NCBI GenBank assembly: GCA_944384305.1
Contig: CALWSW010000003.1
Coordinates: forward strand, 1 to 43,153
Direction of reading: 5' to 3'
Length of the DNA: 43,153 nt
Source of the DNA: an uncultured Christensenellaceae bacterium
GTDB taxonomy: Bacteria > Bacillota > Clostridia > Christensenellales > CALWSW01
Shown here: in pieces, positions 1,319-27,220 of the stretch
How the letters are laid out: each line of letters starts with the position of its first letter
Position numbering within the stretch: the stretch's first letter is position 1
Notes under the pieces: generated by a model
Told to the model about the DNA's origin: nothing
The model's database searches: none
What the model saw: the letters and a program-made list of their open reading frames with translations, nothing else
Translations under genes and position numbers: made by a program

Positions 1319-2077
1319 TTACCCCCTTTCGCCGCGCGCGCGGCAAATGGCGTCGCAGTGCGCCAGCTCCTCGGGGGTGTTCACGCCCAGGCACTCGTCG
1401 GGGTCGGCGGCGGGCAGGGCCTCCACGCCCATGTTGTGGTCTACAAAGAGCTTGACGCAGTCGGTCAGGTAGTATTCGTTCTGGGCGTTTTCGGTGGTGA
1501 GCTGCCTTAGCGCCCACAGCAGGCGGGGAATGTCCAAACAGTAGACCAGGGTGTTGACTTCACAAATGGCGCGCTCTTTTTCGGTGGCGTCCTTTTGTTC
1601 GACAATGCCTTTGAGCCGGCCCTGTTCGTCGCGCACCACCCGGCCGTAGCCCGTGGGGTCTTTGAGGACGGCGGAGAGGAAGACCAGCGCCGCGCCGGTT
1701 TTTTGCTGTTCGTCCACCAGCGCCTGCAGGGTTTTTTGGGTAAGCAGGGGCATGTCGCCCGCCACCACCAGCGCACAGCCCTCCTTGGGCGCGCCCGTGG
1801 GGGCCTTTAAAAACTCTTCGGCGCACATGACGGCGTGGCCGGTGCCGAGCTGTTCGCGCTGCAGCGCGTAGCGGGCGGCAGGCCCGAGCGCGGCCTGAAG
1901 CTCTTTGGCGCGGTGGCCTACCACCACCACCGGCGGTTCTGCGCCGGGCAGGGCGGCGGCTTCCATCACCCGCCGGATCATGGGCTTGCCGCCCACCTGG
2001 TGCAGCACCTTGGGCAGCGTGGAGCGCATGCGCTTGCCTTCGCCGGCGGCAAGCAGAATGGGTACAATGGTCTTCAT
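1319..2077 (-). CDS. glmU: GlmU-like N-acetylglucosamine-1-phosphate uridyltransferase, N-terminal domain only (252 aa)
   Basis: ILLAAGEGKRMRSTLPKVLH, QLGTGHAV, GDMPLL, PTGYGRVVR, IVEQKDA, QNEYYLTD, GVNT; ends before the hexapeptide acetyltransferase domain. Start chosen at ATG 2077 (GGAGGA SD). Confidence 0.85.
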   Translation of the reverse strand: MKTIVPILLAAGEGKRMRSTLPKVLHQVGGKPMIRRVMEAAALPGAEPPVVVVGHRAKELQAALGPAARYALQREQLGTGHAVMCAEEFLKAPTGAPKEGCALVVAGDMPLLTQKTLQALVDEQQKTGAALVFLSAVLKDPTGYGRVVRDEQGRLKGIVEQKDATEKERAICEVNTLVYCLDIPRLLWALRQLTTENAQNEYYLTDCVKLFVDHNMGVEALPAADPDECLGVNTPEELAHCDAICRARGERG

Positions 2078-2223
2078 AAGATCCTCCGCGGCACAGGGCC
2101 GTTTGAACGAAAAGAGCGCGCCAAAACCTGCCGGGAAAGACTTTTTCCGGCAGGCGGCACGTGGGTTGCGGTTGAAAAAACCAAAGAAAAGGCGCAAAAG
2201 AAAACGCCCTTCTCTGCGGTTTT

Positions 2224-2252
2224 ATTTTAGGAAAAAAGCGCCGGGGTGTCAA
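2224..2252 (-). promoter_or_regulatory. SigA-type promoter for glmU-pth-mfd
   Basis: TTGACA (2252-2247), 17 bp, TAAAAT (2229-2224) on minus strand. Confidence 0.7.
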
Positions 2253-2324
2253 GAAAAGGGGGCCGAACAGGCGGGGCGCCGGCACCTGCCCCTGCGCTCT
2301 TGCCCGCGGCAAAAAGCCGGAGGG

Positions 2325-3155
2325 CTACTTGCTGTTTTCCAGCCAGTCGGCGGGGTGGATGGAGATCTTCTCGTTCTCCTCGTCGATGCCCTCGAGCACC
2401 ATGAGCGTGCGGAAGTCGCGCAAACGGCGCTGGGCCGCGGCCTGCGGTGTGGCCACCAGGCTGCACACCCCCACCACCGTGACGGCGAACTCCTTCATCA
2501 TGTTGCAGATGGCGCCCACCGTGCCGCCGCCCTTTACAAAGTCGTCGACGATGAGGGCCTTCTGCCCTTCGTGCACCGCCCGCCGCGAAAGCGACATGGT
2601 CTGCAGGCGCTTGGAGGAAGTCGAAAGATAATTGAGCGTGACGACCGAACCTTCGGTGACGCGGTTGTCGCGCCGGGCCACCACCAGGCTGCACCCCAGG
2701 GCCTGCGCCGTCATGAGCCCGATGGGCACGCCCTTGGACTCCACGGTGACCACCACGTCCGGCTCGGCGCCGTAGTACTGCGCGGCGAAGATCTCGCCCA
2801 ATTTGCGGATGCAGGAAGGGTCGGAAAAGAGGTCGACGGTGTAAAGGTACCCGCCCGGCAGGATGCGCGCCGGGTCGGAGAGCTTTTCGCACACCGCCTG
2901 CACACAGGCCACGTTGGCCCCGGCCGGGCCGCCCATCAAAAACTTGACGCCGCCGGCCGCGCCGGGCACGGTCTCGATGCGGCCCAGGCCGTTGGCGGCA
3001 AGCACCTTTTTGAGGGCCGCCATGTCTTCGGAAAGCGTGGACTTGGCGCAGCCAAAACGGTCGGCAAATTCTGTGAGCGTGTGCAGTTTGTTGGGCTGCT
3101 GGGAAAGCATCAGCAAAATCATGGCGATGCGCTCGCTGCGCGTGGTCTTGTTCAC
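2325..3155 (-). CDS. purR: Pur operon repressor (wHTH + PRT domain)
   Basis: RSERI, AKSTLSED, GRIETVPGAAGGVKF, RILPGGYLY, VTEGSVVTLNYLS, LIVDDFVKGGGT; likely GTG start at 3155. Confidence 0.95.
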   Translation of the reverse strand: MNKTTRSERIAMILLMLSQQPNKLHTLTEFADRFGCAKSTLSEDMAALKKVLAANGLGRIETVPGAAGGVKFLMGGPAGANVACVQAVCEKLSDPARILPGGYLYTVDLFSDPSCIRKLGEIFAAQYYGAEPDVVVTVESKGVPIGLMTAQALGCSLVVARRDNRVTEGSVVTLNYLSTSSKRLQTMSLSRRAVHEGQKALIVDDFVKGGGTVGAICNMMKEFAVTVVGVCSLVATPQAAAQRRLRDFRTLMVLEGIDEENEKISIHPADWLENSK

Positions 3156-5119: not shown

Positions 5120-6264
5120 AGGCCGGCGCCGTGCTGCTCGCCGCCGGCAAAAGCGAGCGCATGGGCGAGAACAAAATGCTTTTGCCGCTGTGCGGGCGCA
5201 CCGTGCTGGAGCGCAGCTTTTTGACGCTCGCCTCCTGCAAGGGCATTGAGCGCATTGTGTTCGTGGCCTCGCAGGAGACCCGCGCGGCGTGCGAGGCGCT
5301 CGCGGCGGGCTCTGCCATCCCCTGCGCGGTGGTCATGGGGGGCGAAGAGCGGCAGGACTCGGTGCTGAACGGCCTGCGGGTGCTGGGGCGCGCCGAGATC
5401 GCCGTCATCCACGACGGCGCGCGCTGCCTGGCCACCAAAGAGCTCATCGAGGCGTCGATCGAGAGCGCCGGGCGCTACGGCAGCGGCGTGGCGGCCGTTC
5501 CCGCCACCGACACCATCAAGCGCGCCGGCGAAGACCGGGTGGTAGCAGAAACGCTCGACCGCCGGGTGCTCTGGCAGATGCAGACCCCGCAGACCTTCCG
5601 CTACGCCGATATTCTGGAGGCCTACGAAAGCGCCGCCATGCGCGGCGTTTGCGCCACAGACGACGCCGCGCTGCTCGAGGCGGGCGGAAGGGAAGTGCGC
5701 CTGGTGTTGGGCAGCCGTGACAATTTGAAGATCACCACGCCCGAAGATGTGGAGCTTGCGCGCGCATTGCTCGCCAAGCGGGAGGGCGGCCTGCCCATGC
5801 GCACCGGCTGCGGCTACGATGTGCACCAGTTGGCCGCGGGCCGCAAGCTGGTGCTGGGCGGGGTGGAGATCCCCTATGAAAAGGGGCTGTTGGGCCACTC
5901 CGACGCCGACGTGCTGACCCACGCCGTGATGGACGCGCTGCTGGGCGCGGCGGCGCTGGGCGACATTGGCCAGCTCTTCCCCGACACCGACCCCGCCTAC
6001 GAGGGGGCGAACAGCCTGGAGCTGCTTGCCCGGGTGGCGGCGCTGTTAAAGGAAAAGGGGTTTGCGGTGGGAAACGTGGACGCCACCGTTGCGGCCGAGC
6101 GGCCCAAGCTGCTGCCCTACGAACCGGCCATGCGCCAAAACCTTGCGCGGGTGCTGGGCATTTTGCCCGAGCGGGTGAGCGTAAAAGCCACCACCACAGA
6201 GGGCCTGGGCATCGTGGGCGAGGGGCGCGGCATGGCGGCGCAGTGCGTGTGCACCATTTTTTGA
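5116..6264 (+). CDS. ispDF: Bifunctional IspD/IspF (MEP pathway)
   Basis: IspD: LLAAGKSERMG, GGEERQDSV, IHDGAR, QTPQTF, TDDA, NLKITTPED; IspF: GYDVH, GLLGHSDADVLTHA, GDIGQLFPDTD, SVKATTTEGLG. Confidence 0.95.
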   Translation: MKAGAVLLAAGKSERMGENKMLLPLCGRTVLERSFLTLASCKGIERIVFVASQETRAACEALAAGSAIPCAVVMGGEERQDSVLNGLRVLGRAEIAVIHDGARCLATKELIEASIESAGRYGSGVAAVPATDTIKRAGEDRVVAETLDRRVLWQMQTPQTFRYADILEAYESAAMRGVCATDDAALLEAGGREVRLVLGSRDNLKITTPEDVELARALLAKREGGLPMRTGCGYDVHQLAAGRKLVLGGVEIPYEKGLLGHSDADVLTHAVMDALLGAAALGDIGQLFPDTDPAYEGANSLELLARVAALLKEKGFAVGNVDATVAAERPKLLPYEPAMRQNLARVLGILPERVSVKATTTEGLGIVGEGRGMAAQCVCTIF

Positions 6265-6288
6265 CCCCGCCGGCTTGGAGGAGGACGA

Positions 6289-7479
6289 ATGGGAACCTAC
6301 TACGACAAAAAAAGACCGCGTTACAGAAGCGGCAGCGGCCGCCGGGTGCGGCGCATGCGCCGCCGGGGCAGGCCGATCTCCGGCCGGCGGGGCGGGCCGC
6401 TTTTGATCGTCTTTTTGGTGCTGCTCTTTGTGGCCGCCCTGGCGGCGGCGGTCGTGTTTTTGATCGTTCCCATGTTCCAGGGAACGTATGACGGCACCGC
6501 GCCCGAGGTGGTGGCGGCAGAGCCCCTGCCCACCGAGGCCCCGCACACCGTGCAGGTGGTGGAACTGGGCGCGCTGCAGAAGGAGGTGGCGCTTTCGGAC
6601 CGCTACGTGAATTCGCCGTGGGTGGCGGATGGCGCCATGGTGCTGGTGGGCGGCACGGACGACTACGGCAACCCCGCAATGCGCAGCATGTACCTGCTGG
6701 ACCTCGGCGGCGAGGAGAGCGAGCCCACCCGGCTTTCGCTTTCGCCCGAAAACGACGAGTTCTTCCATGTGCGCATGAACGAGCGGTGGATCGTGTACTG
6801 CGACGGCAACAGCGATGAAGGCGGCACGGTGATGGCCTACGAGCGCGCCACGGGCGAGACCCTGCGCGTGAAGGACTACTACGCCGGAGCGCCGGAGCTG
6901 GCGCCCGACGGCGACACGCTTTGCTTTATGGAGCGCACCGGCACCTATATGGACAAGCTTTACGTCTGCGACCTGAACACCTTGGAGTGCGTGGCCGTGG
7001 CGACCTTTGAAGAGAGCGTGTACGGCCAGAGCGAGCCTTCGGCGGCGAACGGCCAGCTGATTTGGGCGGACGGTGGAACAGACGGCGGCAGCGTGATCTG
7101 CTCGCTCGACCTTGAGACGGGCGAACTGGGCAGCTTTGACGCCGGCACCTATGTGCACGACCCCGTGACCAACGGCACGGACTGGGCCTGGATCGACAGC
7201 AACCACGAGGCGGGCGCAAAGCTCTACCTTTCGGTCGCGGGGAGCGAGCCCCAGGTTTTGGCCGAGAACGTGCTGAACTACGGCATTTCGGAAGAGTTCG
7301 TAGCCTACGACAAGGACGGCGCCATTTACGTGTACTTTATAGAAGACGGCTACGAGCAGATCATTACCCCGGCTGCCGAGCGGGGCTGGCTGGCCTGCGT
7401 GGCCAACGGCACGGTGCTGTGGTACGAGACCGGCGTGAGCAGCTCGCGCGATCTGCTGAAATACGCTGTGATCGATTGA
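6289..7479 (+). CDS. Membrane-anchored extracellular protein (basic N-tail, one TM helix, acidic beta-rich, possibly beta-propeller domain)
   Basis: GGAGG SD; Arg-rich N-terminus, hydrophobic LLIVFLVLLFVAALAAAVVFLIV, repeated Y/C-x-x-DL-x-(T/G)G blade-like motifs. Confidence 0.75.
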   Translation: MGTYYDKKRPRYRSGSGRRVRRMRRRGRPISGRRGGPLLIVFLVLLFVAALAAAVVFLIVPMFQGTYDGTAPEVVAAEPLPTEAPHTVQVVELGALQKEVALSDRYVNSPWVADGAMVLVGGTDDYGNPAMRSMYLLDLGGEESEPTRLSLSPENDEFFHVRMNERWIVYCDGNSDEGGTVMAYERATGETLRVKDYYAGAPELAPDGDTLCFMERTGTYMDKLYVCDLNTLECVAVATFEESVYGQSEPSAANGQLIWADGGTDGGSVICSLDLETGELGSFDAGTYVHDPVTNGTDWAWIDSNHEAGAKLYLSVAGSEPQVLAENVLNYGISEEFVAYDKDGAIYVYFIEDGYEQIITPAAERGWLACVANGTVLWYETGVSSSRDLLKYAVID

Positions 7480-9199: not shown

Positions 9200-9275
9200 G
9201 GGGCATTAGCACAGTTGGTAGCGCGCATCGTTCGCATCGATGAGGTCAGCGGTTCGAATCCGCTATGCTCCACCA
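9200..9275 (+). tRNA. tRNA-Ala(CGC)
   Basis: GGGGCAT acceptor, D-loop TTGGTA, anticodon arm CATCG-TT-CGC-AT-CGATG, T-loop GTTCGAATC, ends ATGCTCC-A-CCA; G3:U70 Ala identity pair. Confidence 0.96.
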
Positions 9276-9395: not shown

Positions 9396-9908
9396 TTATT
9401 GGGGTTCCATCCTTTGCCTGATCGCTTTATAGATCTTCCGCTTAACGCGAGCTTGCTGAGTATCTTTCATTCGTTTCACAGCTCTTTTGAGCACAAAATG
9501 TCCTCTGACATATCCGCCCGGTGGACCGACATACATTCCTCCGGCAGGATCGCCACGATTGTATACAAAAGTATGTCCTGCCCAGTGTCCGGGTACGAAG
9601 TGACTTCGAAATCCATACTCAAGGTGCTTCGCGTAATCCAGGTTGTTATAGACGCGGATGAAGTAGCGGTTGCCGCTTTGCCTGGCTGTCTTATCCGACT
9701 TCCAGTTGCGCCGGTAGTCGCCGGTATTGACGATACCGGTCTTCCGGCGGCCGGGCTCGCTCAGATCGGTCGTGCAGATCTTGCGCGCCTGGCCAACGGC
9801 ATACATCCCCTCGCTCACAGCGATTTGGCCAATGATGTTGGGCGCGTCTTCTTGTAGCCGGGTCAATCTTTCGATATAATCCCGCAACTCCTTTGTGTTG
9901 ACCGCCAT
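9396..9908 (-). CDS. HK97 gp10-family neck/tail-completion protein
   Basis: MAVNTKEL...; VNTGDYRRNW, VYNNLDYAKHLEYG, GYVRGHFVLKRA motifs; ATG at 9908. Confidence 0.8.
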   Translation of the reverse strand: MAVNTKELRDYIERLTRLQEDAPNIIGQIAVSEGMYAVGQARKICTTDLSEPGRRKTGIVNTGDYRRNWKSDKTARQSGNRYFIRVYNNLDYAKHLEYGFRSHFVPGHWAGHTFVYNRGDPAGGMYVGPPGGYVRGHFVLKRAVKRMKDTQQARVKRKIYKAIRQRMEPQ

Positions 9909-9910: not shown

Positions 9911-10195
9911 TTATTCCTTTGTGGCCCGCGCCGCCGTCACGCCATCGAATGCGCCATTGGCGGCCAAACTCACCACCACGGCGTTGATGAACGCAAGCCC
10001 GGCCGTGGACCAGTTGAGTTCCCCCGCCACCGCCGCAGCGGCGATGAGCACAACGAGCGCCACAATGTAGCTGGTGATGCGGGTCGGGATCCGCTCGATC
10101 CACCCGATGCCCTTGATGAGCTGGGTGATGAGGGTGACGGCCAGCGTGGCGCCGGCGTAGGTGCCCAGGGCGCTCCAGGTGAAGAATTCTTCCAT
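9911..10195 (-). CDS. Holin-like membrane protein
   Basis: 94 aa, about 3 hydrophobic helices, ends LAANGAFD; in lysis module. Confidence 0.75.
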   Translation of the reverse strand: MEEFFTWSALGTYAGATLAVTLITQLIKGIGWIERIPTRITSYIVALVVLIAAAAVAGELNWSTAGLAFINAVVVSLAANGAFDGVTAARATKE

Positions 10196-10210: not shown

Positions 10211-10525
10211 TTATTTAATCAAATGATCGGCGGCTTGTTCGTTCAAAAAATGATAGTACGCCTCTTTGGCGGTCTCGTAGTCTGCAACAGCCTCTTCCAC
10301 CTCACCATTGGGCTTGCCGCGCTTGATGGCCATAGCGCAGGCGTAGGAGAGCTTGGCGGCGGCCATGGTGACCTCTAAATTGAGGAGCGATTCCTGCTTG
10401 CGCGCGGCGGCGTGGGCCTCGCTGGCCCGGTCGCGCCGCTTTTGCGCCCTTTGGAGATAATACGCTGCGCACGATGCGATGACGCTGGGCAGCAGCCCTA
10501 GCAGAAATGCTGTTACTTCACTCAT
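10211..10525 (-). CDS. Lysis-module membrane protein (holin/antiholin-like)
   Basis: N-terminal TM helix then charged helical domain; between endolysin and holin. Confidence 0.6.
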   Translation of the reverse strand: MSEVTAFLLGLLPSVIASCAAYYLQRAQKRRDRASEAHAAARKQESLLNLEVTMAAAKLSYACAMAIKRGKPNGEVEEAVADYETAKEAYYHFLNEQAADHLIK

Positions 10526-10537: not shown

Positions 10538-12274
10538 TCAGTACTTCCAGCGGGCCTTCGTGCCCCGCACATCCACATGGACGATATAGCGTGCGCCGTA
10601 GCCCACGCCGCCGGAAACGTTCATTTTAAGGGCGATCTCTTCCAGGTGATCTCGGATTTCGGCGTCGGATACTCCGTCGCATTTGCCGAAGATATCCGCC
10701 GCGCGGCCGAATTTGTGCTGGGAGCCTGATGCCCCGCCCCGCTCTTTGTTCCACTGCTCGCAACGCTGGCCGCCGGCGATGGCGCCATCGCGCGTTGGTT
10801 CCGCACGGCAGGTCACGTACAGCCTCAGCCCAGGGTACTTCTTTTCTGCCTCCCGCCAGATGCGTTCGACCAGGAGGCGCACACCGGCGGTGCTGGCGTT
10901 GGGGTACCCGTCGCAGTACTTGTTGCACTGGCACTCCATGTCGGCCTCAGTCAAGCGCGGGGTGATGATCCCGCTTTTTAAGGCCGCCCAGGTCTTGGGC
11001 CCGGCAATGCCGTCCGCTGCAAGACCCATGGCCGCCTGGAACTGCTTCACCGCCTCTTTGGTCTTGGGGCCGTTCTTGCCGTCGATCTCCCCAACGATCG
11101 CCCCGAAGCCCCAGTCGGTCAGCGCCTGCTGCACGCCCTCGATGGTCTCCGGCCAATCGGTAGGGATGTCGGGGTCTGCAGGCTGCTCAGGCCCGTCGGG
11201 TGGCTCGGTGAGGTAGCTCGCCTTGATCCAGCCGCAGGTGCCGGTGCCGACCAGTGCCCGTTCGCCCTGGCGTTGCAATACCGTCACGATATCGCCATTA
11301 TAGAGGTAGCCGACCTTATCGCTCTTGGTATCAGCTTTGGCTCGTACGATGAGCGCATTACCCTCAGAGACGCCGGAGATCATCTTCTTTTCCTGCACTG
11401 GGTCCTCCTTCCCGTCATTCTTGTCGTTGCCGCCGTCATCCTCCCCAAAGTCATCCGGCAGCTCGACCCGTGGGATGAGGTGCAGCCCGGAGGGGCACTT
11501 GACCTCGGCAGGGGTGGCGTGGTCCATCAGGTAGGCGTAAGCATCGGCCTCGCTGATCTCCGGCCAGCGGGAGAGGATGAGGGCCATCATGCCGGCCACG
11601 GCCGGGGAGGCCATGCTGGTGCCGCTGAGCACGCGGTAGCCGCTCCCGGCGTTTTTGCAGCTGATTACACTGCTGCCGATGACGCAGCAGTCGGTGAGCG
11701 CTCCCCAGCAGGAAGAACTGTCGTTCATTTTCGAATTGCTTTTTAAATTTGCCACCACGATGGGGCTTTCATAGTCCGCCAGGGGCGATTTTTCGTCGGA
11801 ATCATTGCAGGCAGCCACTATAACCGGCACATTGCTGGCTACGAGATCATCTATCTCTGTCATAATGACCGGCCTGTCCGTTTCGCTGAGCGAGATATTG
11901 ACGACCAACCGCTTCTCGGGATGCTCGCTATGCCACGCTTTGATCTGCTGCAGCGCCTGGACAACGCTGCTGTTGCTCCCCGCGTTGGCAGCCCCATCCG
12001 TGACTTTGAGCGGCAATATTTCCGCGTCTGGTGCGATGCCGTACACTGCACCAGCAGCGATGCCCGCCACGTGCGTGCCGTGCCCGTAGGGGTTCACATC
12101 ATTGGTCGGCGTATTCCCGCGGATCGCCCAGCCATCTGTGCGCACGGACAAGTCCTCGTGCGGCCACACCCCTGTGTCGATCACCGCGATCACGACGCCC
12201 TTCCCCGTCACCCCGTGCTGGTGCCACTTTTCCGCCCCCGTAAACTCCCGGGGGATATTTCCACTCAGTGCCAT
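10538..12274 (-). CDS. S8 subtilase + SH3b + peptidoglycan-binding + peptidase M15A endolysin fusion
   Basis: S8 triad VIDTG / HGTHVAG / SGTSMASP; LIVRAKA..KVGYL..GD.V..GWIKASYL (SH3); VQQAL..G..DGKNGPKTKEAVKQFQ..GLAADGIAGPKTW (PG-binding); SQHKFGRAADI..HVDVR (M15 Zn ligands). Confidence 0.9.
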   Translation of the reverse strand: MALSGNIPREFTGAEKWHQHGVTGKGVVIAVIDTGVWPHEDLSVRTDGWAIRGNTPTNDVNPYGHGTHVAGIAAGAVYGIAPDAEILPLKVTDGAANAGSNSSVVQALQQIKAWHSEHPEKRLVVNISLSETDRPVIMTEIDDLVASNVPVIVAACNDSDEKSPLADYESPIVVANLKSNSKMNDSSSCWGALTDCCVIGSSVISCKNAGSGYRVLSGTSMASPAVAGMMALILSRWPEISEADAYAYLMDHATPAEVKCPSGLHLIPRVELPDDFGEDDGGNDKNDGKEDPVQEKKMISGVSEGNALIVRAKADTKSDKVGYLYNGDIVTVLQRQGERALVGTGTCGWIKASYLTEPPDGPEQPADPDIPTDWPETIEGVQQALTDWGFGAIVGEIDGKNGPKTKEAVKQFQAAMGLAADGIAGPKTWAALKSGIITPRLTEADMECQCNKYCDGYPNASTAGVRLLVERIWREAEKKYPGLRLYVTCRAEPTRDGAIAGGQRCEQWNKERGGASGSQHKFGRAADIFGKCDGVSDAEIRDHLEEIALKMNVSGGVGYGARYIVHVDVRGTKARWKY

Positions 12275-12289: not shown

Positions 12290-13534
12290 TCAGTCTCCTG
12301 TGATCGCTCTGATCTCATCGGCCGTCAGGTTGAGCGGGAACTTTTTGCCCTCTCCATCCCGCTCATAGACCTGGTCCCAATAATAGGCGTTTGCCAGTAC
12401 CCGCGCTTTGTGCATGGGACAGATGTAGGTCGCGCGCCTGTTTGGAGTGCCAAAGACCTCGTAGTTGTGTGCGCTGCACCACGCGCAGCCCGAAGCCACG
12501 GGGCAGCAGAAGCACTCGTCTGTTGATTGCGACCGGCGGGTGATGCTTTCCAGCTCCGCGATCCTCTGCCGGTGCTCAGCCGTTGTGCCGATGCCCGTCC
12601 ATATGTCCCCGATCACATACGGCTCGCGAGAGACCGACATGGGCGTGTACCGCAGGCAGGGGTAGATCCTGCCGTCCACGTCGATGGCGAGCATTTTCCC
12701 CGTGCCGCCGCACCAGTTGCCGTTTTCTTCCGGCGGCAGAGGCTGCCCGATCCAATCGTCAAACAGTGTGTTGCGCAGCCCCGGATGTTCCAGCAGGTAA
12801 TCCGCCAGACGAAGCATTTCGCGGTACAGTACACGGGCGTGTTCCGGCTCCCATCCCTGCTCAAATACGCAATTGCAGAAGATCGTGTCCATGCCGAGGT
12901 TCTCATAAAGATTGACGGACGCTTCATACAGGTATTGCAGATTCCCCGGCGCCAGTGTGAACTTGGTGCTGTTTAGGCCGGCAGCTTTGACTGCAGCAGC
13001 GACGCGGTCATAGGTCGGCTGGCCATATAGATCGAATCTGCAGGCGTCGTGGCAGGCCTGGCAGCCATCCACCGTGATGTTGATGTTCAGCCGGCCGGCA
13101 TATTTAAGCAGCAGTTTCTGTACGGCAGGATCAAAGTAGTCCAAACCATTGCTGCAGATCGACATCATATACTGCGTTGCCCAGCGATGCTGTTTTTCGA
13201 GAGACGTCCGGAGAAAATAAGTCATGGTCTCGTCGATCAACCCTGTCTCAAGCAGCGGTTCCCCGCCGATGAAGTCCATGATCAGCCCGTGGGCGTCTTC
13301 GCCGTTGATCCATTGAGAGTGCCGGGCATCTTCTGCAAACAAAAAATCGACGGTTTGCTTTGCCGTCGAAAGACTCATCTTGTCATTGCTTTTGTGCGTC
13401 TCGTAACAATAAGCGCAGCGCATCGAGCAATCGTGCGTGACTACGAAGGTTACGGTTTTTACCCGTTTGTCCCGTCCGTACATGGCCAAATATTTATCCC
13501 CGAAGCCACCCAACGCAACACGGTCACTTTTCAT
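12290..13534 (-). CDS. Radical SAM/SPASM peptide maturase, CXXX-repeat target family
   Basis: CSMRCAYC, FIGGEPLL, SPASM NWCGGTGKML..DGRIYPCLRY..ECFCCPVASGCAWC..ICPMHKAR. Confidence 0.92.
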   Translation of the reverse strand: MKSDRVALGGFGDKYLAMYGRDKRVKTVTFVVTHDCSMRCAYCYETHKSNDKMSLSTAKQTVDFLFAEDARHSQWINGEDAHGLIMDFIGGEPLLETGLIDETMTYFLRTSLEKQHRWATQYMMSICSNGLDYFDPAVQKLLLKYAGRLNINITVDGCQACHDACRFDLYGQPTYDRVAAAVKAAGLNSTKFTLAPGNLQYLYEASVNLYENLGMDTIFCNCVFEQGWEPEHARVLYREMLRLADYLLEHPGLRNTLFDDWIGQPLPPEENGNWCGGTGKMLAIDVDGRIYPCLRYTPMSVSREPYVIGDIWTGIGTTAEHRQRIAELESITRRSQSTDECFCCPVASGCAWCSAHNYEVFGTPNRRATYICPMHKARVLANAYYWDQVYERDGEGKKFPLNLTADEIRAITGD

Positions 13535-13838
13535 ATGCGACGATCACCCCCTTGTAAAAATCCGGTGTGAAGAAAACATTGGGGTCATGTGCCCGATCCG
13601 GTGCTGCACGCTTGACGATCTCGTTGAGCGCAACCTGCCGCTCGGCAAACGCCTGCTGGTACTCGTCTCTGAGCTTGTTGTACACGGGGTCGATGGCAGC
13701 CGGTTCCACGAGACGGGACAGATTCGTGATCAGTACGCGCAAGCCGTCCGTTTCAAAACTGAGTTTTTCCAGGTAGGACATTTGGCTTTCGCCCACCTCG
13801 TATTCGGCTATTTTCTTTCTAAAGCGGTCACAGCTCAT
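13524..13838 (-). CDS. Small accessory protein of CXXX-repeat modification system (putative)
   Basis: 104 aa from ATG 13838, overlaps both neighbours by 11 nt; helical with C-terminal FFTPDFYKGVI. Size and position resemble the small partner of CXXX rSAM clusters. Confidence 0.6.
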   Translation of the reverse strand: MSCDRFRKKIAEYEVGESQMSYLEKLSFETDGLRVLITNLSRLVEPAAIDPVYNKLRDEYQQAFAERQVALNEIVKRAAPDRAHDPNVFFTPDFYKGVIVAYEK

Positions 13839-14385
13839 TGATGATGCGGTCCCCCAAATCCACGATGGTGCTATCCAGCGACTTGACGTAATCTGCGATT
13901 TCTTCGATTTCACTGAGATGGTTGGCTAACGCGTCGTTGGCCTTGCTCGCCAAAAGCAGGGTAAGGTAGGTCCGCCCTGCAATGTACCGTAAGATCGGGC
14001 TGCCTTCGTCCGTCGCGTAATACGTATAAAAGTTCGTGTCGTAGTTTTCCTTCGCGTAAAAATCCTGCAGCTTGCGCTGCGCCATCAGGGAAATAAATCC
14101 GTCAAACTCCGTCTGGTCGAATCTGCTGGCTACGGTCCCGAACATTGTGGTAAACACCGTTTTGAAGTCTGCCGTGAAGTTGCCGGCGATGTTTTTGAGC
14201 GCATTGTACGTGGCAAAGCCAAGGGCAAACACTTCGTGCTCGTCCCGTGCTGCGGCAAAACTTTCGATGGCGGACCGCAGCGGCTCGACAATGGCTTCCC
14301 ACCCTGGTCCTTCCGTGAGGCTCACAAGAAAATCGGCCAGGTGAAACACCTGGTCCGGCATCGAATTGATGAAGATATCGAACAT
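13828..14385 (-). CDS. Hypothetical helical protein within rSAM cassette
   Basis: 185 aa, AGGAGG SD, tightly packed between target and accessory gene. Confidence 0.75.
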   Translation of the reverse strand: MFDIFINSMPDQVFHLADFLVSLTEGPGWEAIVEPLRSAIESFAAARDEHEVFALGFATYNALKNIAGNFTADFKTVFTTMFGTVASRFDQTEFDGFISLMAQRKLQDFYAKENYDTNFYTYYATDEGSPILRYIAGRTYLTLLLASKANDALANHLSEIEEIADYVKSLDSTIVDLGDRIINEL

Positions 14386-14397
14386 GGCACCCTCCTA

Positions 14398-15015
14398 TCA
14401 AGTATCGCGATTGACACCAGAGCACGTGTAGCCGCACGCCAAGGAACAGGCTGTTTGACAGCTGCCTTCGCACGTACCGGTACAGCTGCGGCATCCTTGG
14501 CAGCCGTTCCGGCAAGAGTAGTCACAGGTTCCGGTGCAATCGTATTGGCAGGTGTTTCCGCACCCGCTGCAGCCATAACACCCCGTGGAACACGTGCCAG
14601 AGCACCCTTGGCAGCCGCCGGTACACGTGCCCGTGCAGGATGTGTCGCAGCTGGTGCTGCAAGTTGCGTAACAAGCGCCGGCGCAGTTGCCGTTGCAGTC
14701 GGTCGCAGTTTTGTTGTATAAATTCGTCCTCGCCGATAGTATGGTAACAAACGCCGTCATTTCGTCCAGATCTGTTTTGGAGACCGGGCGCGGCATGCCG
14801 GCATCGGGCACCTGCTCGCTGTTGGCGGCCTGCAGTGGGACTGCGTTCTTAGTATAATGCTCCTCATAGACCGGCTGGCCTTCCGCTGGTGTGTGAGCAT
14901 AATCGTAATCTGTGCCGCCATAAGTCGCCAGCGAATCCTGGTACTGCCGCCGCAGCATTTCCGCTTTTACCGCTGCTTTGAGGTTGATAAAATCATCTGG
15001 ATCGATCCTGGGCAA
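14398..15015 (-). CDS. Cys-rich CXXX-repeat protein (putative rSAM modification target)
   Basis: TTG start with GGAGGTG SD; 106 Cys-free residues then 25 Cys in CX3/CX2 spacing (residues 107-198). Confidence 0.88.
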   Translation of the reverse strand: MPRIDPDDFINLKAAVKAEMLRRQYQDSLATYGGTDYDYAHTPAEGQPVYEEHYTKNAVPLQAANSEQVPDAGMPRPVSKTDLDEMTAFVTILSARTNLYNKTATDCNGNCAGACYATCSTSCDTSCTGTCTGGCQGCSGTCSTGCYGCSGCGNTCQYDCTGTCDYSCRNGCQGCRSCTGTCEGSCQTACSLACGYTCSGVNRDT

Positions 15016-15972: not shown

Positions 15973-17655
15973 TTAGCTTTGCGTGAGGCCGGTATCCACC
16001 CAGCCGTCGGCAGCGACGTAAATGTACACTTTATACGGCGAGGATGTGCCGACCTCGTACATGTCGCCCTGGGCGGGGCTGGTAATGGCCGCCTGCAGCG
16101 CTTCGAGCGAGCCGTACCGTCCCAGCACAGGCAGCTTTTCCTCTTGACCCAACACGAATTGCGGCTCGAACACCGTGTCGCAGATGAGGGCCAAGCGTGG
16201 GTCGGGGGCCCACCCGGTAAAGAAGCCTTTCTTCCAGGTCGGATTGGATGCGGGCGGCGTGGCAAAGGGGTGAGCGGCCGGCAGCTCCTGAACGTCGACG
16301 GGCTCTCCATTGCGATTGGTAAACGTGGCTGTGAAGCTCTGCCGCGCCGCCATGGCGGGCAAATACGTCAGGCGGTAGAAGCACTCCAAGTTGAGGGCCG
16401 AGACCAAACTGAAGATGCCGCCCGCTCCCAGGGGGGTCAATGCTTCGCCGGGGTCGGGCTCGTCCTCGTCCGGGCCTTCCAAGGGGGGCGGGGGATCGAG
16501 CTCGCCGGCGGCGATTTCACTAAGGGCGTCCGCCGCCACAGGCGCAGCCGGTGCGGCCGATACTGCGCCCCAATACAGAGTGAGGTACAACGAATCCCCC
16601 AGTCCGGAGGTGGCGTACTGGTCGGGGATGGCCCCGGCCGCGGCGGCCGTGGCGTTGGGGATGAGGATGCCGGGAATGACCTCGTCTGGCACCAACTTTG
16701 TGATGTAGCCCGAGCCGGTGTCCACATAGGCGGGCTGGTCCACACCGCTCTCGCCGCTCTCCTGCACCACGCCCAGGGGGACGTGGGCAGAAGTCTCGGC
16801 GGCGTTGTCGTTCCAGGGGCTTTCCTTGTAGAGCAGGTTCGTAGTCTCAAAAGCCAGCGTACCCCAAAGGGCGGTGGGGGTTTTGCCCCACAGGTTTTCG
16901 AGCCCCCTGTAAACGCACCAGCCCTCGACCTCGCTGCCGCCCGAGTGGTAGCCCAGGGCGCCGGACTTGCCGTTGATGTCAGTGCCCGTATGGAGCCCGA
17001 CGCTGCACACCGCCGTCTGGCTGTTCCAGTCGGCGACTTCGACGAGGTACAAGAGAAGGATGGTCGCCCAGGTCATAGCGCCAGAAGGGACCCAGCCGCT
17101 GCCGCGCTCGCCGTTCGGCCATGTCGTGGGCAGGGAGATTGACGTGGACTTGGCCGCGGGCGCGCCGGAAGAACGGCCTTCTTTATCCAGAAAGTAAGCG
17201 CTGACGTATGCTTTTTCCTCTCCCTGTTCGTTCCCTGGCACCGGCCGGTGCAGGGGGGAGACTTCTGCGCCCTCGAAGGGCTGGGCCGAAATCCGGATGG
17301 CGAGCTCTGTTTCGCTGTCGGTCACTTTGTAATAGAAGCGGGGGATCTCGACCATCACATCCCCCACATCGGGGGTCATGGTAAAGCCCAGCTCGCCCTC
17401 GTAAGCCGTAACGACGCCGTTTGTTACGTTGCACCGGCGGATGTCTCGGTAGATCGGCCGTGTGTCGAAGCTCGAACTGCCGGTAGTCGTGCCTGAAGCG
17501 GTGATGCGCTGCGGCGTAAAAGAGAATCCCACCGCGTCATCCGTGCGCGTGAGGGTAGAAGAGGCAGAAGCCTTCGTCCATTTGACGCCATAAATGTACG
17601 GCTGTTCGAGCGGCGACAGGTTGGCGTTCCCGCCGTAGAGGTATCCTGCCATCAT
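15973..17655 (-). CDS. Tail fibre / receptor-binding protein
   Basis: YGVKW..LTRTDDA, GDVMVEIPRFYYK, LLYLVE.ADWNSQ, YRGLENLWG motifs seen in Firmicutes phage fibres; position after baseplate. Confidence 0.7.
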   Translation of the reverse strand: MMAGYLYGGNANLSPLEQPYIYGVKWTKASASSTLTRTDDAVGFSFTPQRITASGTTTGSSSFDTRPIYRDIRRCNVTNGVVTAYEGELGFTMTPDVGDVMVEIPRFYYKVTDSETELAIRISAQPFEGAEVSPLHRPVPGNEQGEEKAYVSAYFLDKEGRSSGAPAAKSTSISLPTTWPNGERGSGWVPSGAMTWATILLLYLVEVADWNSQTAVCSVGLHTGTDINGKSGALGYHSGGSEVEGWCVYRGLENLWGKTPTALWGTLAFETTNLLYKESPWNDNAAETSAHVPLGVVQESGESGVDQPAYVDTGSGYITKLVPDEVIPGILIPNATAAAAGAIPDQYATSGLGDSLYLTLYWGAVSAAPAAPVAADALSEIAAGELDPPPPLEGPDEDEPDPGEALTPLGAGGIFSLVSALNLECFYRLTYLPAMAARQSFTATFTNRNGEPVDVQELPAAHPFATPPASNPTWKKGFFTGWAPDPRLALICDTVFEPQFVLGQEEKLPVLGRYGSLEALQAAITSPAQGDMYEVGTSSPYKVYIYVAADGWVDTGLTQS

Positions 17656-18560
17656 TCTACCTCCGATCCGCCGGCGGAAGTTTCAGCCACCGCCTTGCAG
17701 ATCTCGTATTGCAGGGTAATAGCCACGTCGTGCTGGCGGTCGCTGCGCAGCAGGAAGGAGCCGTCCGACGTCTCAATATAGGCGTGGATGGTCTGCACTT
17801 CAGCGATCGAGCCCATGTCGGCTGCCAGCGCCACCACCATGTCGGCCGCGCCGACGTCGGCATCCGTCACGGTGCGTTCAAACCAGTAGTACCCGTCCTC
17901 CGGTTCCCCTTCTGTCCATCCTTCTGCGGGGATGGTGCAGGTTTTGCAGATGCTGCCGCCGCCAGTCCCCATGTCTTGCAGCGCCTCTGTCAACGAGCCG
18001 CCGTTGTAGGTGACCTGGTCGGTCGTGTGCGTGTGGGTCTTTGGCGCGGCGTACTCGGTCAGGTCGGTTTGTGTCACATAGCTGCCCGCACCGATTTCGA
18101 TGGTAATGGCAGCATCCTCTTGATTGGTCGCCAGCAGCGCGAGTTCGTGCAGGTGGATGCTGTCGCCTGAATCAACCGCCGCTGGCGCTGGCACGGGCAG
18201 AATGTTGTCGCTGTCGCCGCCGTCCAGCCAAGCATAGGCAAACAGGTATTCGCCTTGCTCTTCATCCTGGGCGAAAATGCCGATCTCCCGGACTGCTGCT
18301 GGTGCGGTCAAATGGGCGTTGGTGATCTGCACCGGTATTTTGATATAAGGTGGGGAGACGTTGGCAATATACTCTTTTTCGCCCAGCTCTGCGTCCACGC
18401 CATCCAGCGGGCTGATGAGCGCGCTCAATGCGCCCTGGTCTCTCTGGCAGATGCCGTCGCCCACGGCCGCTTTGGTCAATATGAGCTGCGCGCCGGCAGC
18501 AATGGCAGCGGTCAGGGCCGCTGCGCCCTGATCGGTAATGGTAGATTGATAGCGCGCCAC
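17652..18560 (-). CDS. Baseplate-anchored tail fibre/collar protein (DUF3751-like N-terminus)
   Basis: ITDQGAAAL..LTKAAVGDG..VREIGIFAQD..LFAY; follows XkdU-like gene. Confidence 0.8.
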   Translation of the reverse strand: MARYQSTITDQGAAALTAAIAAGAQLILTKAAVGDGICQRDQGALSALISPLDGVDAELGEKEYIANVSPPYIKIPVQITNAHLTAPAAVREIGIFAQDEEQGEYLFAYAWLDGGDSDNILPVPAPAAVDSGDSIHLHELALLATNQEDAAITIEIGAGSYVTQTDLTEYAAPKTHTHTTDQVTYNGGSLTEALQDMGTGGGSICKTCTIPAEGWTEGEPEDGYYWFERTVTDADVGAADMVVALAADMGSIAEVQTIHAYIETSDGSFLLRSDRQHDVAITLQYEICKAVAETSAGGSEVE

Positions 18561-18561
18561 A

Positions 18562-19092
18562 TTAGCTCCTTTCCCCGGGCTGGTGTTTGTGCGTAACCAT
18601 GCCGGGCGTCAACCCCGACGCACAGATGAGCACCGGCTGCGTGAGTTTTTGGCGAATCGCCGTGCGCAGGATCCACAGCAGATTCGCGGGGATCATCTGC
18701 TGCAGCGTTGCTTGCAGATCCTCCCGCTGCGAATCTCCTTGCAGTTCAACGTCGATTTGGATGCGGTAATCCTCAAGCACTGCGCCTGCTTTCGGGTCGA
18801 TCGACTGCAAGTAGGACAGCAGCGTGCGCCAGGTGTAAGGCAGATGGTTGAGGTATTTGATCAGGATGCGTTCCCGCCGGCCTTCCAATGTGTCCCCAGG
18901 AGCCGCTGTAAGACCCAGGATCGCTTCCCAGCGCTCACAGCCATACTCGGATAAGCTGAGCAAGAAAAAGTCGTCTGGTGCGCTCCGGATGTCCTGGACG
19001 GCTTGCGCGTACTCCGGCTGTTCGGCATCGGCTATTTGGCCGAACTCGAACAGATTTTGTAAAAATCGCGGCCAATATTCTTTAAGCTCCAT
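18562..19092 (-). CDS. Baseplate protein XkdU/YmfQ-like (DUF2313)
   Basis: GCERWEAILGL..DTLEGRRERI, MIPANL; synteny. Confidence 0.85.
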   Translation of the reverse strand: MELKEYWPRFLQNLFEFGQIADAEQPEYAQAVQDIRSAPDDFFLLSLSEYGCERWEAILGLTAAPGDTLEGRRERILIKYLNHLPYTWRTLLSYLQSIDPKAGAVLEDYRIQIDVELQGDSQREDLQATLQQMIPANLLWILRTAIRQKLTQPVLICASGLTPGMVTHKHQPGERS

Positions 19093-20293
19093 TGGTCACC
19101 TCTCCCAGCACTGGTATTTCTTCGGCCGCCAGCGGAATGTTCGCGGTGCCGCCGTTGATGGTCGTGCCCTGGATATCGATGATCCCTTCTACATTCAAGA
19201 TGGCCGTTTCTATTTGACTGACGCGGACGATCAGGCTGTCATTGTCCGCCCAGGTCTGGGTCAGGCCGTCGAAATAGGACTGGATCGCTGCTTTGACCGC
19301 TGTTTGCGCAGTGCTCCACGACGCCGGTTCGGAAAAGGTCAGCACAAAGGTAATGTCGATCGTTTTCCCGGCGACGCCGGCGACCGTAACGACATGGCCG
19401 ATCGGGGCAACGCCCACGCCTTCCCCCTTCATCCCCACCGGGTCGACCGCCTCCTGCACTTCCGCGACCAGTTCGGCAGAAGGGACAGACCATTCGCTGT
19501 CCACCAATACGATGCGGACCGCGCCGCCCACCGTCAGCTTCCCGTCCGCAGCCGCAGCATAAACTTTCGCAAGCCATGCTTTGATTGCGTCCGCTGCTTC
19601 CACAGATGTCATCCAAGATTCCGTCCCCTCCGGGGGAATCAGTTCAGCGGGGCGAATATCGCCATTCCACACGGGAATGACCTTTACCTTCCCCACGCCC
19701 GGCAACAATTCGACTTTTGCTTTATAGTCGGCAATATTTCCGCCATATGCCTGGGACTCGAGCGATGCAAAGTAACGTTCGCGCAGCGCCTCGTCGCTCT
19801 CCTCGTCCTCCCCCGGAATAAGGATGTCCGAAAGTGTTGCCGCCGCCAGATCGGGCACATAATCGATGGGGAACAGCGTGCCGATATACTCGTTTCCGGC
19901 CGCGCCGGGCGTCTCCGCTGTCACCCGGTATTCGCTTGACGTGATCTTTTCCGCAACTGCAAAATTCAGGTCACCGCCCGAAAAGCGTGTTCCAATGGGT
20001 ACGTTACAGCCTGATCCATCGGCTTTCGTCAGTATCGCTTTTCTGACTGCACAGGTCGCGGCCACCCGGAAGACGCTTCGCTCACGGCATTTCTTCGTCA
20101 GGTCTTCGCCGGTCTCGGTGTCCGGGAACGCCCTGTCCAGCAGATAGGCCAGCTCAATATACAAGACTGCCAGCTCTGCCGCAGCAGGGGCGACAGCGTC
20201 GTACATGATCGAACCCTCGCGCTTGTCTAGGGAGGCGGAGATTCTGGCCATACAGCGCGCCATGATGTTTTCGAAGGTCATGTTCTCATACAT
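19082..20293 (-). CDS. Baseplate J/gp47 protein (XkdT-like)
   Basis: DKREGS..YDA.AP, GEDEESDEALRERY, GGNIADY, G.GVAPIGH.VTV. Confidence 0.92.
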   Translation of the reverse strand: MYENMTFENIMARCMARISASLDKREGSIMYDAVAPAAAELAVLYIELAYLLDRAFPDTETGEDLTKKCRERSVFRVAATCAVRKAILTKADGSGCNVPIGTRFSGGDLNFAVAEKITSSEYRVTAETPGAAGNEYIGTLFPIDYVPDLAAATLSDILIPGEDEESDEALRERYFASLESQAYGGNIADYKAKVELLPGVGKVKVIPVWNGDIRPAELIPPEGTESWMTSVEAADAIKAWLAKVYAAAADGKLTVGGAVRIVLVDSEWSVPSAELVAEVQEAVDPVGMKGEGVGVAPIGHVVTVAGVAGKTIDITFVLTFSEPASWSTAQTAVKAAIQSYFDGLTQTWADNDSLIVRVSQIETAILNVEGIIDIQGTTINGGTANIPLAAEEIPVLGEVTNGA

Positions 20294-20714
20294 TGGCCTG
20301 GACAGTCCTTTCTATGTGGATGCTGCCGAAGATGGTGTTGGCGGTGAACGCGACCCGCGCCGTCCGCCGGTCGAGCCGCTCGACCGTAAAGTCCGCTGTG
20401 CCGGTGATCCGGCTGTCGGCCAGCAGCGCTTCCGTTATGACGCGCTTGATCTCGCTCTCGAACACCGCATAACTTTTCCCCATAACCGCGTTCCACTCCA
20501 CGCCGTAGTCCCATGAATAGATGTAATAATGGAAGCGCTCTGTCGAGAGGATCTTGAAGATCGCCTGCTTCATAGCTTCGGTTTCGTCGGTAAAGCCGGC
20601 GACGCGGCCGGTATCAAAATTCACCTTGTAGGTTTTTGTCGGCTGTTCGGCCGCCGGCTGGATCTCGATGCCCTGCCCAATGGGCGCTCCGGCTGAATTT
20701 GGGATCAATGCCAT
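20286..20714 (-). CDS. Baseplate wedge/sheath-initiator XkdS-like (DUF2634)
   Basis: EAMKQAI.KIL.TERF.YYIYSWDYG, I.EALL.D.RI, TIFG. Confidence 0.88.
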   Translation of the reverse strand: MALIPNSAGAPIGQGIEIQPAAEQPTKTYKVNFDTGRVAGFTDETEAMKQAIFKILSTERFHYYIYSWDYGVEWNAVMGKSYAVFESEIKRVITEALLADSRITGTADFTVERLDRRTARVAFTANTIFGSIHIERTVQANV

Positions 20715-20715
20715 G

Positions 20716-21096
20716 TCACACCCTCCCCAGCACGAGGAAGGACTGTCCGCCGGCGTTGCGCAGCAGCACGACCTTCTCGCCTGTTTTCAATCCATAGTAG
20801 GATTCAGATTCCTCGCCATCGTTGGTCTTATAATCGTCTTTCAGATCATGCGCGTGGCCGGAAGCGTCTTCGGTCTGCGCCGGGAGCTTGAATCCGGTGT
20901 GCTGGTGGGTGGGGTAATACCCTTTCTTAAACTCCTTCATCAGAACGATCGCTTCGCCGGTAATGTCAAAGCGGTTGTCCACGCGGATGGTCAGAGGGGC
21001 TTCCGCCGTTACCGTGCCAAACAAAAAGGCCGCCGGCACGGAAGCATTCTGCGACTGCCTGGCGACCTTTTTCATCGTGTCAAGAAGCGCCATCAC
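20716..21096 (-). CDS. XkdR-like spike protein (DUF2577)
   Basis: FGTVT..PLTIRVD, HQH/HAH, LKTGEKVVLLR..GGQSFLVLGRV. Confidence 0.85.
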   Translation of the reverse strand: MMALLDTMKKVARQSQNASVPAAFLFGTVTAEAPLTIRVDNRFDITGEAIVLMKEFKKGYYPTHQHTGFKLPAQTEDASGHAHDLKDDYKTNDGEESESYYGLKTGEKVVLLRNAGGQSFLVLGRV

Positions 21097-22049
21097 TACA
21101 CCACCTTCAGCTTTAGGGTCATGGTTTCTTTCATGAGGTCGGCGCTGACTTCTTCCACGATGAAAAAAGAACTGACGCCGATCTTTGCGATTTCGATGGT
21201 CAACGCCTGCCCGGCCCGCACGGAAAGATCCAGCAGCGCTTTGACCTCGAATGTCCGTCTGGGGCGGTTATAGAGTTCGAGCATCATCCCGCCGCGTTCC
21301 TTGATCTGCGCTTCGTTCATCTCTTCGTCCACCGCCTCATAGTTTTGGAGAGTCCCCCACAGCGCCATATTGCCGGAATCCTGGAACAAATAGACGTCGC
21401 GCTTGCCGGTCTCTTTGTTGTCGCGCACCAGCTTGATCACGTTGTAGGTCTCGGAATCGATCTCGGATTCCTGGGTGAATCCGGTAGCCAGGCTGTTGTC
21501 GCCAATGATCAGATCCTGAACGGACTCCGTAACACCCGTCAGCCGCAGGGCGCCGAAATCATCCCACAGGACGAACATCTTGCCGGTGTTGACCAGCGTG
21601 TAGTCCAGCGCCTTCAGCACGATGTCGAAGAGGGTCTGGGCGTCTTCGACCATGGAGGGAATGGCATACCCCGTGTTTGCCAGTGCGCCGCACAGCAGGC
21701 CAAAGTCCGCCGCGATCTGGGTCAGGATCTCATCGGCGCGCTTGCCGGCAAACACATAGGTCTCTTTGTTTTTCTTCAGGTACCAGGTCTGGTCGTACGC
21801 CGTGACCGTGACTTCATCCTCTTCGTTTTGGCTGATCTTTACCACGTAGCCGTAAAAGATTCCGGCATTGTCCTCTTTCAGGGCGACGATCCCTCCGTGG
21901 TTCCACGCCACATCATTGTGCGCGAGCAGCGTCAGTTCCAAGGAGGCGGGGGAGCCGGCCCGCTTGGTCGTCCAGGTCACGCCGGTGCACAACGCGGCAA
22001 CATCGTGCGTCTCGCCGGTCACGTTGTTTTGGTACAGGATGGAGATCAT
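21096..22049 (-). CDS. XkdQ/YqbQ-like baseplate hub protein
   Basis: ATG 22049; [47 protein letters not shown]. Confidence 0.88.
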
Positions 22050-27029: not shown

Positions 27030-27031
27030 GG

Positions 27032-27220
27032 TCACACCTCTCTTTTCAAATAATCAAGGACCAGGTCAACCGCCTGATCCTTCGTGTAGGTCTGCCCATC
27101 CTTCAAGACAGCCGCAACGGCATCACGGGGCAAACCAAGTGTTTTTGCTCTGACAAGCTGCTCTTTCGTAAAAGCCGACACCTCCACGGGCGCCGCCTTC
27201 TCTTTCTTTGCTGTTGTCAT
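27032..27220 (-). CDS. Small conserved phage protein preceding the sheath gene
   Basis: FTKEQLV..L..D...YT pattern; coupled to neighbours. Confidence 0.7.
   Translation of the reverse strand: MTTAKKEKAAPVEVSAFTKEQLVRAKTLGLPRDAVAAVLKDGQTYTKDQAVDLVLDYLKREV

Follow-up and report, generated by a model that had tools for sequence, protein, structure and literature searches.

Modular endolysins that carry two enzymes in one chain are the closest described counterparts of the protein studied here. They lack a signal peptide, depend on a holin, and shuffle catalytic and wall-binding modules, and both of their catalytic domains are specific for peptidoglycan. The window, as we call the whole 43,153-nucleotide stretch of DNA that was analyzed (positions 1 to 43,153 of contig CALWSW010000003.1, GenBank assembly GCA_944384305.1, from an uncultured Christensenellaceae bacterium), contains a prophage lysin gene whose product follows the same plan but differs in that one of its two enzymes is a general subtilase (peptidase family S8). 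This domain is joined through an acidic linker to SH3_3, PG_binding_1, and M15 zinc-peptidase domains (Table 1), and the gene begins 15 nt downstream of a gene for a radical SAM (rSAM) maturase, directly after it as the original prediction, made from the sequence alone, had stated. We lean toward the view, which we consider reasonably probable, that the product is a holin-dependent endolysin with an accessory wall-targeted protease, i.e., a lysis accessory and not the peptidase of the neighboring rSAM cassette. The original prediction had also remarked that S8 proteases are not typical endolysin domains, and we agree. A full-text literature search found no description of a subtilase-bearing endolysin, and the main text of two metagenomic endolysin surveys (PMC13284279 and PMC5968864), whose supplements could list an S8 architecture, contains none of the terms Peptidase_S, subtil, serine protease, Peptidase_C1, and PF00082.

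Other described enzymes resemble parts of this protein. The S8 half is about 33% identical to intracellular subtilisin proteases (ISPs; PDB 2XRM, 2X8J, and 2WV7) and to subtilisin/Savinase, with the same Asp-His-Ser triad and oxyanion Asn. Like the ISPs, it is cytoplasm made and has no classical I9 prodomain; unlike them, it begins at the position of the mature subtilisin N terminus and runs on into wall-binding and lysin domains. ISPs carry a short inhibitory N-terminal extension. In the bacterial wall subtilases P0046 (named “minor extracellular protease Epr” by JGI) and P0231, an S8 domain is joined to PG_binding_1, which would anchor the protease, but these are secreted bacterial enzymes that carry, besides the signal peptide, a propeptide region at the N terminus and have no wall hydrolase domain. 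Spanins and the mycobacteriophage LysB esterase share with the S8 half the concept of a second lysis-cassette enzyme for a layer that the endolysin cannot cut, whereas chemistry and target differ; LysB reportedly has a PG-binding domain (PMC10888907). We know of no protease in such a role, and our literature search found none.

The fusion of subtilase and lysin is real. A homologue search covering 5.8 billion protein clusters yielded 45 related clusters, and the domain-architecture search for S8 plus M15 that the original prediction had proposed found both domains (PF00082 and PF08291, the latter being M15_3) in one chain in 20 protein clusters from ENA, Logan, and NCBI assemblies, which are 55 to 100% identical. 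Mean pairwise identity across the 20 homologues is 0.64 for S8 and 0.79 for M15, compared with 0.36 for the linker (residues 276 to 295), and thus both enzymes are constrained and the linker is not. Contigs of four other sequencing runs revealed no insertion or deletion in the lysin gene; runs X2 and X3 come from the study that also produced the probable source sample, and X5 and X6 leave parts of 11209-11827 uncovered. One X2 contig covers 10858-11501, across the linker, without a single difference. With a single open reading frame (ORF), 20 fused clusters, and an identical linker-crossing contig, the chain is unbroken, as had been predicted. The ORF starts with ATG, about 8 to 12 nt downstream of a GGAGG ribosome-binding site. 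Runs holding lysin sequence are mostly labelled chicken gut metagenome.

The active site of the subtilase is intact. Asp33 lies in DTG, His65 in HGTH, Ser220 in GTSMA, and the oxyanion Asn157 in AACN (assigned by the AACN/AAGN motif, one residue off the HMMER alignment), and all four are invariant in the 20 fused homologues, down to 55% identity. They are also kept in 11 of 12 wider relatives. The best PDB match of the S8 half is Savinase (E = 9.5e-25), with which DTG, HGTH, and GTSMA align, followed by other subtilisins, ISPs, and proteinase K-type enzymes. Residue 15 of the lysin aligns with residue 14 of mature, 269-residue Savinase, so there is no room for a prodomain before the catalytic domain. 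Nor is there a signal peptide, a signal-arrest-release segment, or a transmembrane segment: no 19-residue window in the whole protein reaches a Kyte-Doolittle value of 1.6, and the highest at the N terminus is -0.18. Pfam score, triad order, and oxyanion Asn place the protein in the S8 superfamily, and it is predicted to be proteolytic. No NCBIfam S8 model reached its cutoff; the best, mycosin, scored 111.5 against 278.75 bits. The anatomy given in the original prediction (a complete S8 triad without signal peptide or prodomain, then an acidic linker, SH3, PG-binding, and an M15A-like peptidase in one endolysin) is thus borne out by motifs, the Savinase alignment, hydropathy, and Pfam.

The peptidoglycan-cutting half is likewise conserved. 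M15/LAS enzymes bind their metal through H-x(6)-D plus a second His (SxHxxGxAxD ... H), and the lysin has this pattern: SQHKFGRAAD (of the SxHxxGxAxD type) and HVD are invariant in all 20 homologues, as are the metal and catalytic residues His520, Asp527, His566, and Asp568. The protein matches endolysin phrogs 2649, 1493, and 894, and we class it as an endolysin from its M15 half and its position. Its C-terminal half resembles the zinc D-Ala-D-Ala carboxypeptidase of Streptomyces albus G (PDB 1LBU; MEROPS M15A, muramoyl-pentapeptide carboxypeptidase), in which PG_binding_1 is likewise followed by an M15 domain with SxHxxGxAxD; this is the sole solved M15 relative, and the match, over the GG.R...N..GGAS.S.H.G.AAD stretch, is weak (E = 0.059). 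The PG-binding domain of 1LBU, too, is N-terminal. The genome of the window itself (G000) encodes a second lysin at 1857-2768 (minus strand; locus L176) of contig C94, a 303-residue SH3-PG_binding_1-M15_3 protein that is 74% identical to the C-terminal half of the window’s lysin and lacks S8. It adjoins DUF3021 and LytTR genes, with no phage genes within the 6 kb read, and may be a domesticated or orphan lysin. Within PG_binding_1 of the window’s lysin, contigs of runs X2, X3, and X6 match only 10983-11014 (32 nt, encoding GIAGPKTWAAL) and are unrelated on both sides, as would be expected of a module-exchange hot spot between lysin genes.

The lysin is a rare endolysin variant seen in metagenomes only. 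When 1.84 billion representative proteins were searched exhaustively with HMMER, only two (P0019 and P0121) matched the whole lysin profile in one stretch, and several rearranged forms also came up. Among the cultured phages of INPHARED, 42 records match parts of the lysin and none of the 42 covers 80% or more. Related-locus scans with the lysin protein alone found no relative in IMG/VR or in GTDB genomes. A family-specific degenerate DNA pattern found no loci in IMG/VR, one in GTDB genomes (on a contig of genome G003), and seven in the metagenome collection. The lysin’s S8 clade (E ≤ 1e-35) occurs in 2 of 401 genomes of the host’s order, that of the window and G003.

The company that this S8 module keeps is the evidence that carries our reading. 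Relatives encode it in a standalone S8-SH3 protein of 347 to 357 residues, about 48% identical to the window’s lysin, and wherever downstream sequence is available (six of six loci: L177, L182, L183, L186, L187, and L188; L184 and L185 are cut by contig ends) the next gene encodes M15_3 plus PG_binding_1. In L177, the stop of the S8-SH3 gene and the start of the M15_3 gene overlap, and small membrane proteins come next. Pfam matches outline further architectures (PGB stands for PG_binding_1): S8-PGB-M15_3 (P0121), S8-M15_3-PGB (P0162), S8-PGB-PGB-NlpC/P60 (P0213), and S8-SH3 followed by a domain of about 200 residues and a second SH3 (P0021 to P0025). The 200-residue domain has no Pfam match and appears NlpC/P60-like by eye; a weak match to phrog_1794 (“amidase”) covers only the final, SH3-containing part. 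The window’s protein (P0001) is 72% identical to P0021 over 359 residues and unrelated thereafter, and fused P0121 is 84% identical to standalone P0179 over 353 residues, so a second lineage has recently undergone fusion or fission. Another rearranged form is Hydrolase_2-PGB-M15_3 (P0135). Elsewhere, the slot of the subtilase is filled by a papain-like protease, as in Peptidase_C1 (55.6 bits)-PGB-PGB-M15_3 (P0124). P0026, P0027, P0030, and P0122, like P0124, join a papain-like C1 domain to PG_binding_1/SH3 and M15 lysin domains, and L188, which encodes an S8-SH3 protein, also encodes a C1-PGB protein (5492-6646, minus strand; Peptidase_C1 at 27 bits against a cutoff of 20.7). We infer from this recurrent fusion that the functional partner of S8 is a wall hydrolase and that a papain-like protease can replace S8. 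None of 80 generic viral S8 loci has the SH3, PGB, or M15 of the lysin family within 3 kb, so the lysin association is specific to the lysin’s S8 clade. Outside that clade, three IMG/VR loci (L008, L010, and L057) have a C1 ORF about 5 kb upstream of a distant S8 at 10001 (E = 1e-8 to 8e-16). The lysin is thus one of a small group of protease-lysin pairings that recur in gut Clostridia phages.

Under the reading that we favor, the lysin would be made in the cytoplasm without a signal peptide and would reach the wall once the two downstream membrane proteins, a holin-like pair, permeabilize the membrane. The M15 domain would then cut peptidoglycan peptides, and the SH3-PG_binding_1-M15 half would be a self-sufficient peptidoglycan peptidase; the same genome has an S8-less copy of it on C94. 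Lysis would have gained the subtilase as an auxiliary module, whose evolutionary partner is the peptidoglycan hydrolase and not the cassette. Held at the wall by SH3 and PG-binding domains, it would cut a host wall or surface protein that lies beyond peptidoglycan cleavage and so complete envelope breakdown, and the fusion would not need to be cleaved to function. Of the options in the original prediction, this corresponds to the cutting of surface proteins during lysis. We place slightly less than even confidence in a host wall-associated protein as the S8 substrate. More tentative again is the general proposal that phages of some gut Clostridia include a protease step in lysis, in which a wall-anchored broad protease (S8 or C1) beside or fused to an endolysin may strip a proteinaceous envelope layer, or a network of wall-bound protein, that survives peptidoglycan hydrolysis.

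Several points weigh against this reading. Proteolysis of a host protein by S8 is a prediction from sequence, and a search of the host genome (80.6% complete) for SLH and CW_binding_2 proteins found none; the genome thus gives no sign of a classical S-layer target, and a protein-layer target is neither supported nor excluded. Catalysis is not kept universally: P0165, a standalone S8-SH3 relative of 363 residues, has lost the catalytic Ser (GTSMA to GSNYA) and the oxyanion Asn and may be a pseudoprotease. The genomic context of the S8 module was read from eight loci, several of them probably of one phage lineage, a small sample beside the 45 related protein clusters. An AlphaFold2 model from the family alignment had a mean pLDDT (predicted local distance difference test) score of 64.6, with a poor lysin half, and was not used. 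Finally, the rSAM cassette is present in the window and in L188, two of the four S8 loci whose upstream sequence could be read, a share above chance among all phages, although the two phages may be related; in L188, the cassette lies 2.6 kb upstream of the S8-SH3 gene and the Peptidase_C1-PG_binding_1 gene directly follows the rSAM gene.

Among other explanations, self-processing, which the original prediction had also put forward, survives best, and we regard it as unlikely. S8 would cut the linker of its own or a sister chain and thereby release or activate an SH3-PG_binding_1-M15 lysin. Such cleavage would suit a long, acidic, poorly conserved linker of variable length between the two halves, the invariant Phe276 of the DDF motif at the start of the linker (a fitting P1 site, given the P1 preference of subtilisins), and the relatives that encode the two halves as separate polypeptides. 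However, the standalone S8-SH3 protein keeps an intact triad and has nothing to release, and therefore its S8 must have a substrate in trans. Moreover, the S8-less lysin on C94 needs no activation, and C1 proteases fill the same slot.

Somewhat less likely again is a receptor-destroying or debris-clearing role, dispensable for lysis, in which the protease, freed as the cell lyses, strips proteinaceous receptors or other surface proteins from lysed and neighboring cells and so spares the progeny from loss on debris. A wall-targeted broad protease that is tied to lysins and freed only at lysis could act in this way, and a CRISPR-like spacer against the lysin gene in another sample indicates that hosts target the phage. 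Against this, fusion to a lysin would tether the protease to the wall of the lysing cell.

We consider it very improbable that S8 is the leader or processing peptidase of the rSAM-modified, Cys-rich protein encoded nearby, as LanP-type peptidases (NisP, EpiP, and LicP) are for lanthipeptides, which would make modification and lysis one system. The likeness to LanP lies in the S8 fold and, in the window, in the adjacent peptide modification gene; it would account for a lysin gene that begins just past the rSAM gene and for the arrangement in L188, and both S8 and papain-like peptidases generally act as leader peptidases of ribosomally synthesized and posttranslationally modified peptides. The genomic association nevertheless fails across relatives. 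A scan of IMG/VR with the rSAM alignment gave at least 521 relatives, and in the best 80 loci (L194 to L273) neither a subtilase nor a papain-like C1 protease was found within 10 kb on either side of the cassette by hidden Markov models (HMMs) of each. The S8 HMM, built from the S8 part of the family alignment, found 160 of 160 control loci holding only distant S8 genes (27 to 38% identity); these loci came from alignment-based scans dominated by generic subtilases and served as a control only. Phage MT835573.1 has a four-gene cassette in its tail region but no S8 anywhere in its 30 kb; M15 and PG-binding matches lie about 10 kb from the cassette and are weak. Conversely, no rSAM gene lies upstream of the S8-SH3 gene in L187 (6.5 kb seen) or L182 (3.1 kb seen). 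Where a cassette like that of the window is followed by a lysis module elsewhere, a different type of lysin is found: L194 has Amidase_3 plus Glucosaminidase, L244 has Amidase_3 with a holin, and L227 has CHAP. S8 itself is fused to wall-binding and wall-cutting domains in at least four architectures. There is also no family-level match, as no lanthipeptide peptidase model is among the 11 NCBIfam matches and no lantibiotic peptidase is named among the PDB matches listed (60 of 153). The proposal that S8 might process the Cys-rich target is therefore not supported and fails the test that the original prediction had set for it, co-occurrence of S8 lysins and the rSAM cassette across related phages; on balance, the position of S8 beside the cassette is best explained by module order, with a tail accessory followed by lysis genes.

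Just as improbable is a role for S8 as a third wall peptidase that cuts peptidoglycan peptides directly, or as a noncatalytic binding module, for which its placement like the second catalytic domain of bicatalytic lysins and the retention of P0165 despite its lost Ser and Asn could be cited, because subtilases cleave extended L-peptides, whereas stem peptides are short and contain D-residues and iso-linkages, and because triad and Asn persist in every fused form and nearly all wider relatives, which argues against pure binding.

The cassette (12290-15015, minus strand) comprises the Cys-rich protein, two small ORFs, and the rSAM gene and lies inside the tail module. For the maturase, the second-best NCBIfam model is the PapB ranthipeptide maturase (148 bits, under its cutoff). 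A Cys-rich ORF stands beside the rSAM gene in 78 of the 80 IMG/VR loci, the two exceptions being short (1.7 and 4.7 kb), and in 75 a homologue of the window’s 205-residue protein could be detected. A baseplate J homologue occurs in 31 of the loci, and a homologue of the window’s 560-residue tail protein in 16. From the Cys-rich pairing and the tail gene homologues, we infer that the cassette is a common accessory of phage tail modules, and this suggests that its product belongs, in modified form, to the virion or tail and is not a secreted peptide. Three gene orders were seen among the cassette loci, some of which have two Cys-rich ORFs. The rSAM gene of L188 (6668-8728, minus strand) contains an intein (Pfam Intein_splicing, 42 bits against a cutoff of 35.8) at the third Cys of the CxxxCxxC radical SAM motif; by eye, it reads CVSGDT...VHN, followed by C. 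L190 (MT837480.1, 2222-6270, 37% GC), filed as a phage, encodes a Cys-rich protein with a twin-arginine-like signal (RREFFK), followed by a CXXX-type rSAM, a second ORF of 321 residues, and TatA- and TatC-looking genes. It looks like a bacterial version of the cassette whose target is exported.

The lysin gene is part of a myovirus-like prophage that has integrated next to tRNA-Ala in the genome of an uncultured chicken gut Clostridia bacterium, whose RadA is at most 65% identical to that of any genome in the collection searched. After the fiber genes, the order is the Cys-rich protein, two small ORFs, rSAM, lysin, the 104- and 94-residue proteins, the gp10-like ORF, and tRNA-Ala. The lysin stands where a lysis cassette would be placed, after tail genes and before two small membrane proteins, which match only phrogs of unknown function. 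In L185, a counterpart of the 104-residue protein sits at the same position (71% identity) and the 94-residue protein is syntenic (92% identical). The former is a probable lysis cassette membrane protein; the latter is putatively holin-like, a name given from position and topology. The gp10-like ORF, after the holin-like genes at the prophage end, is in an odd spot for a head-tail connector gene. In run X2, a 153-nt contig matches only 11195-11228 of the lysin gene (34 nt with two differences), and a 33-nt CRISPR-like repeat ending GTGGATTGAAAT borders the match on either side. A closely related repeat occurs in three copies, spaced 67 to 69 nt apart, at about 1870-2040 of contig C113 in the window’s own genome. 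It thus seems that a spacer directed at the lysin prophage is present in a related host.

Table 1. Lysin gene, its domains and catalytic codons, and other prophage features of the window
Feature	Position	Strand	Basis or remark
S8-SH3_3-PG_binding_1-M15 endolysin gene, 578 aa	10538..12274	-	Single ORF and Pfam; stop codon 10538-10540
Peptidase_S8 (subtilase) domain, residues 24-255	11510..12205	-	Pfam PF00082, E = 1.7e-31, 110.1 bits (cutoff 21.8)
S8 catalytic codon D33	12176-12178	-	Checked in sequence
S8 catalytic codon H65	12080-12082	-	Checked in sequence
S8 catalytic codon N157	11804-11806	-	Checked in sequence
S8 catalytic codon S220	11615-11617	-	Checked in sequence
Acidic low-complexity linker DDFGEDDGGNDKNDGKEDPVQEKK, residues 274-297	11384..11455	-	Sequence; length differs between homologues
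SH3_3 wall-binding domain, residues 307-355	11210..11356	-	Pfam, E = 2.5e-8, 34.4 bits (cutoff 27)
PG_binding_1 domain, residues 381-432	10979..11134	-	Pfam, E = 2.8e-17
M15 zinc-peptidase domain, residues 437-578	10541..10966	-	Peptidase_M15_3 core 494-568, 29.7 bits (cutoff 23.2)
Radical SAM/SPASM maturase, CXXX-repeat target family	12290..13534	-	TIGR04115, 398 bits (cutoff 350); phrog_1802
Cys-rich (CxxxC-repeat) protein, 205 aa, presumed rSAM target	14398..15015	-	Sequence; homologues in viral loci
104-aa protein, one N-terminal hydrophobic segment, directly downstream of lysin	10211..10525	-	phrog_9428 (function unknown); hydropathy
94-aa multipass membrane protein	9911..10195	-	phrog_18218 (function unknown); hydrophobic segments
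HK97 gp10-like tail completion ORF	9396-9908	-	Pfam, 34 bits
tRNA-Ala	9200-9275		Prophage end
Baseplate and fiber genes	15973-22172	-	
LysM tail protein	22046-22699	-	
Tape measure	22699-24588	-	
Tail sheath	25695-27035	-	
Major head protein	28709-29602	-	
Scaffold	29628-30212	-	
Minor head protein	30522-32072	-	
Portal	32059-33552	-	
Terminase large subunit	33562-34833	-	
CI-like repressor	40509-41174	+	

The protease-lysin pattern would mildly surprise a lysis specialist and is easy to test. A natural protease-lysin chimera, if that is what this protein is, would interest enzyme engineers and might be of use where protein coats block lysins applied from outside. The CXXX-repeat rSAM cassette, for its part, is a widespread element of phage tail modules that works without a dedicated protease, and it is better studied as a feature of the virion or tail than as a part of lysis. 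If the S8 domain does act on a host envelope protein, then lysis of uncultured gut Clostridia would require more than the cleavage of peptidoglycan, and S8 and C1 modules would join spanins and LysB as a third type of lysis accessory, their Gram-positive counterpart.

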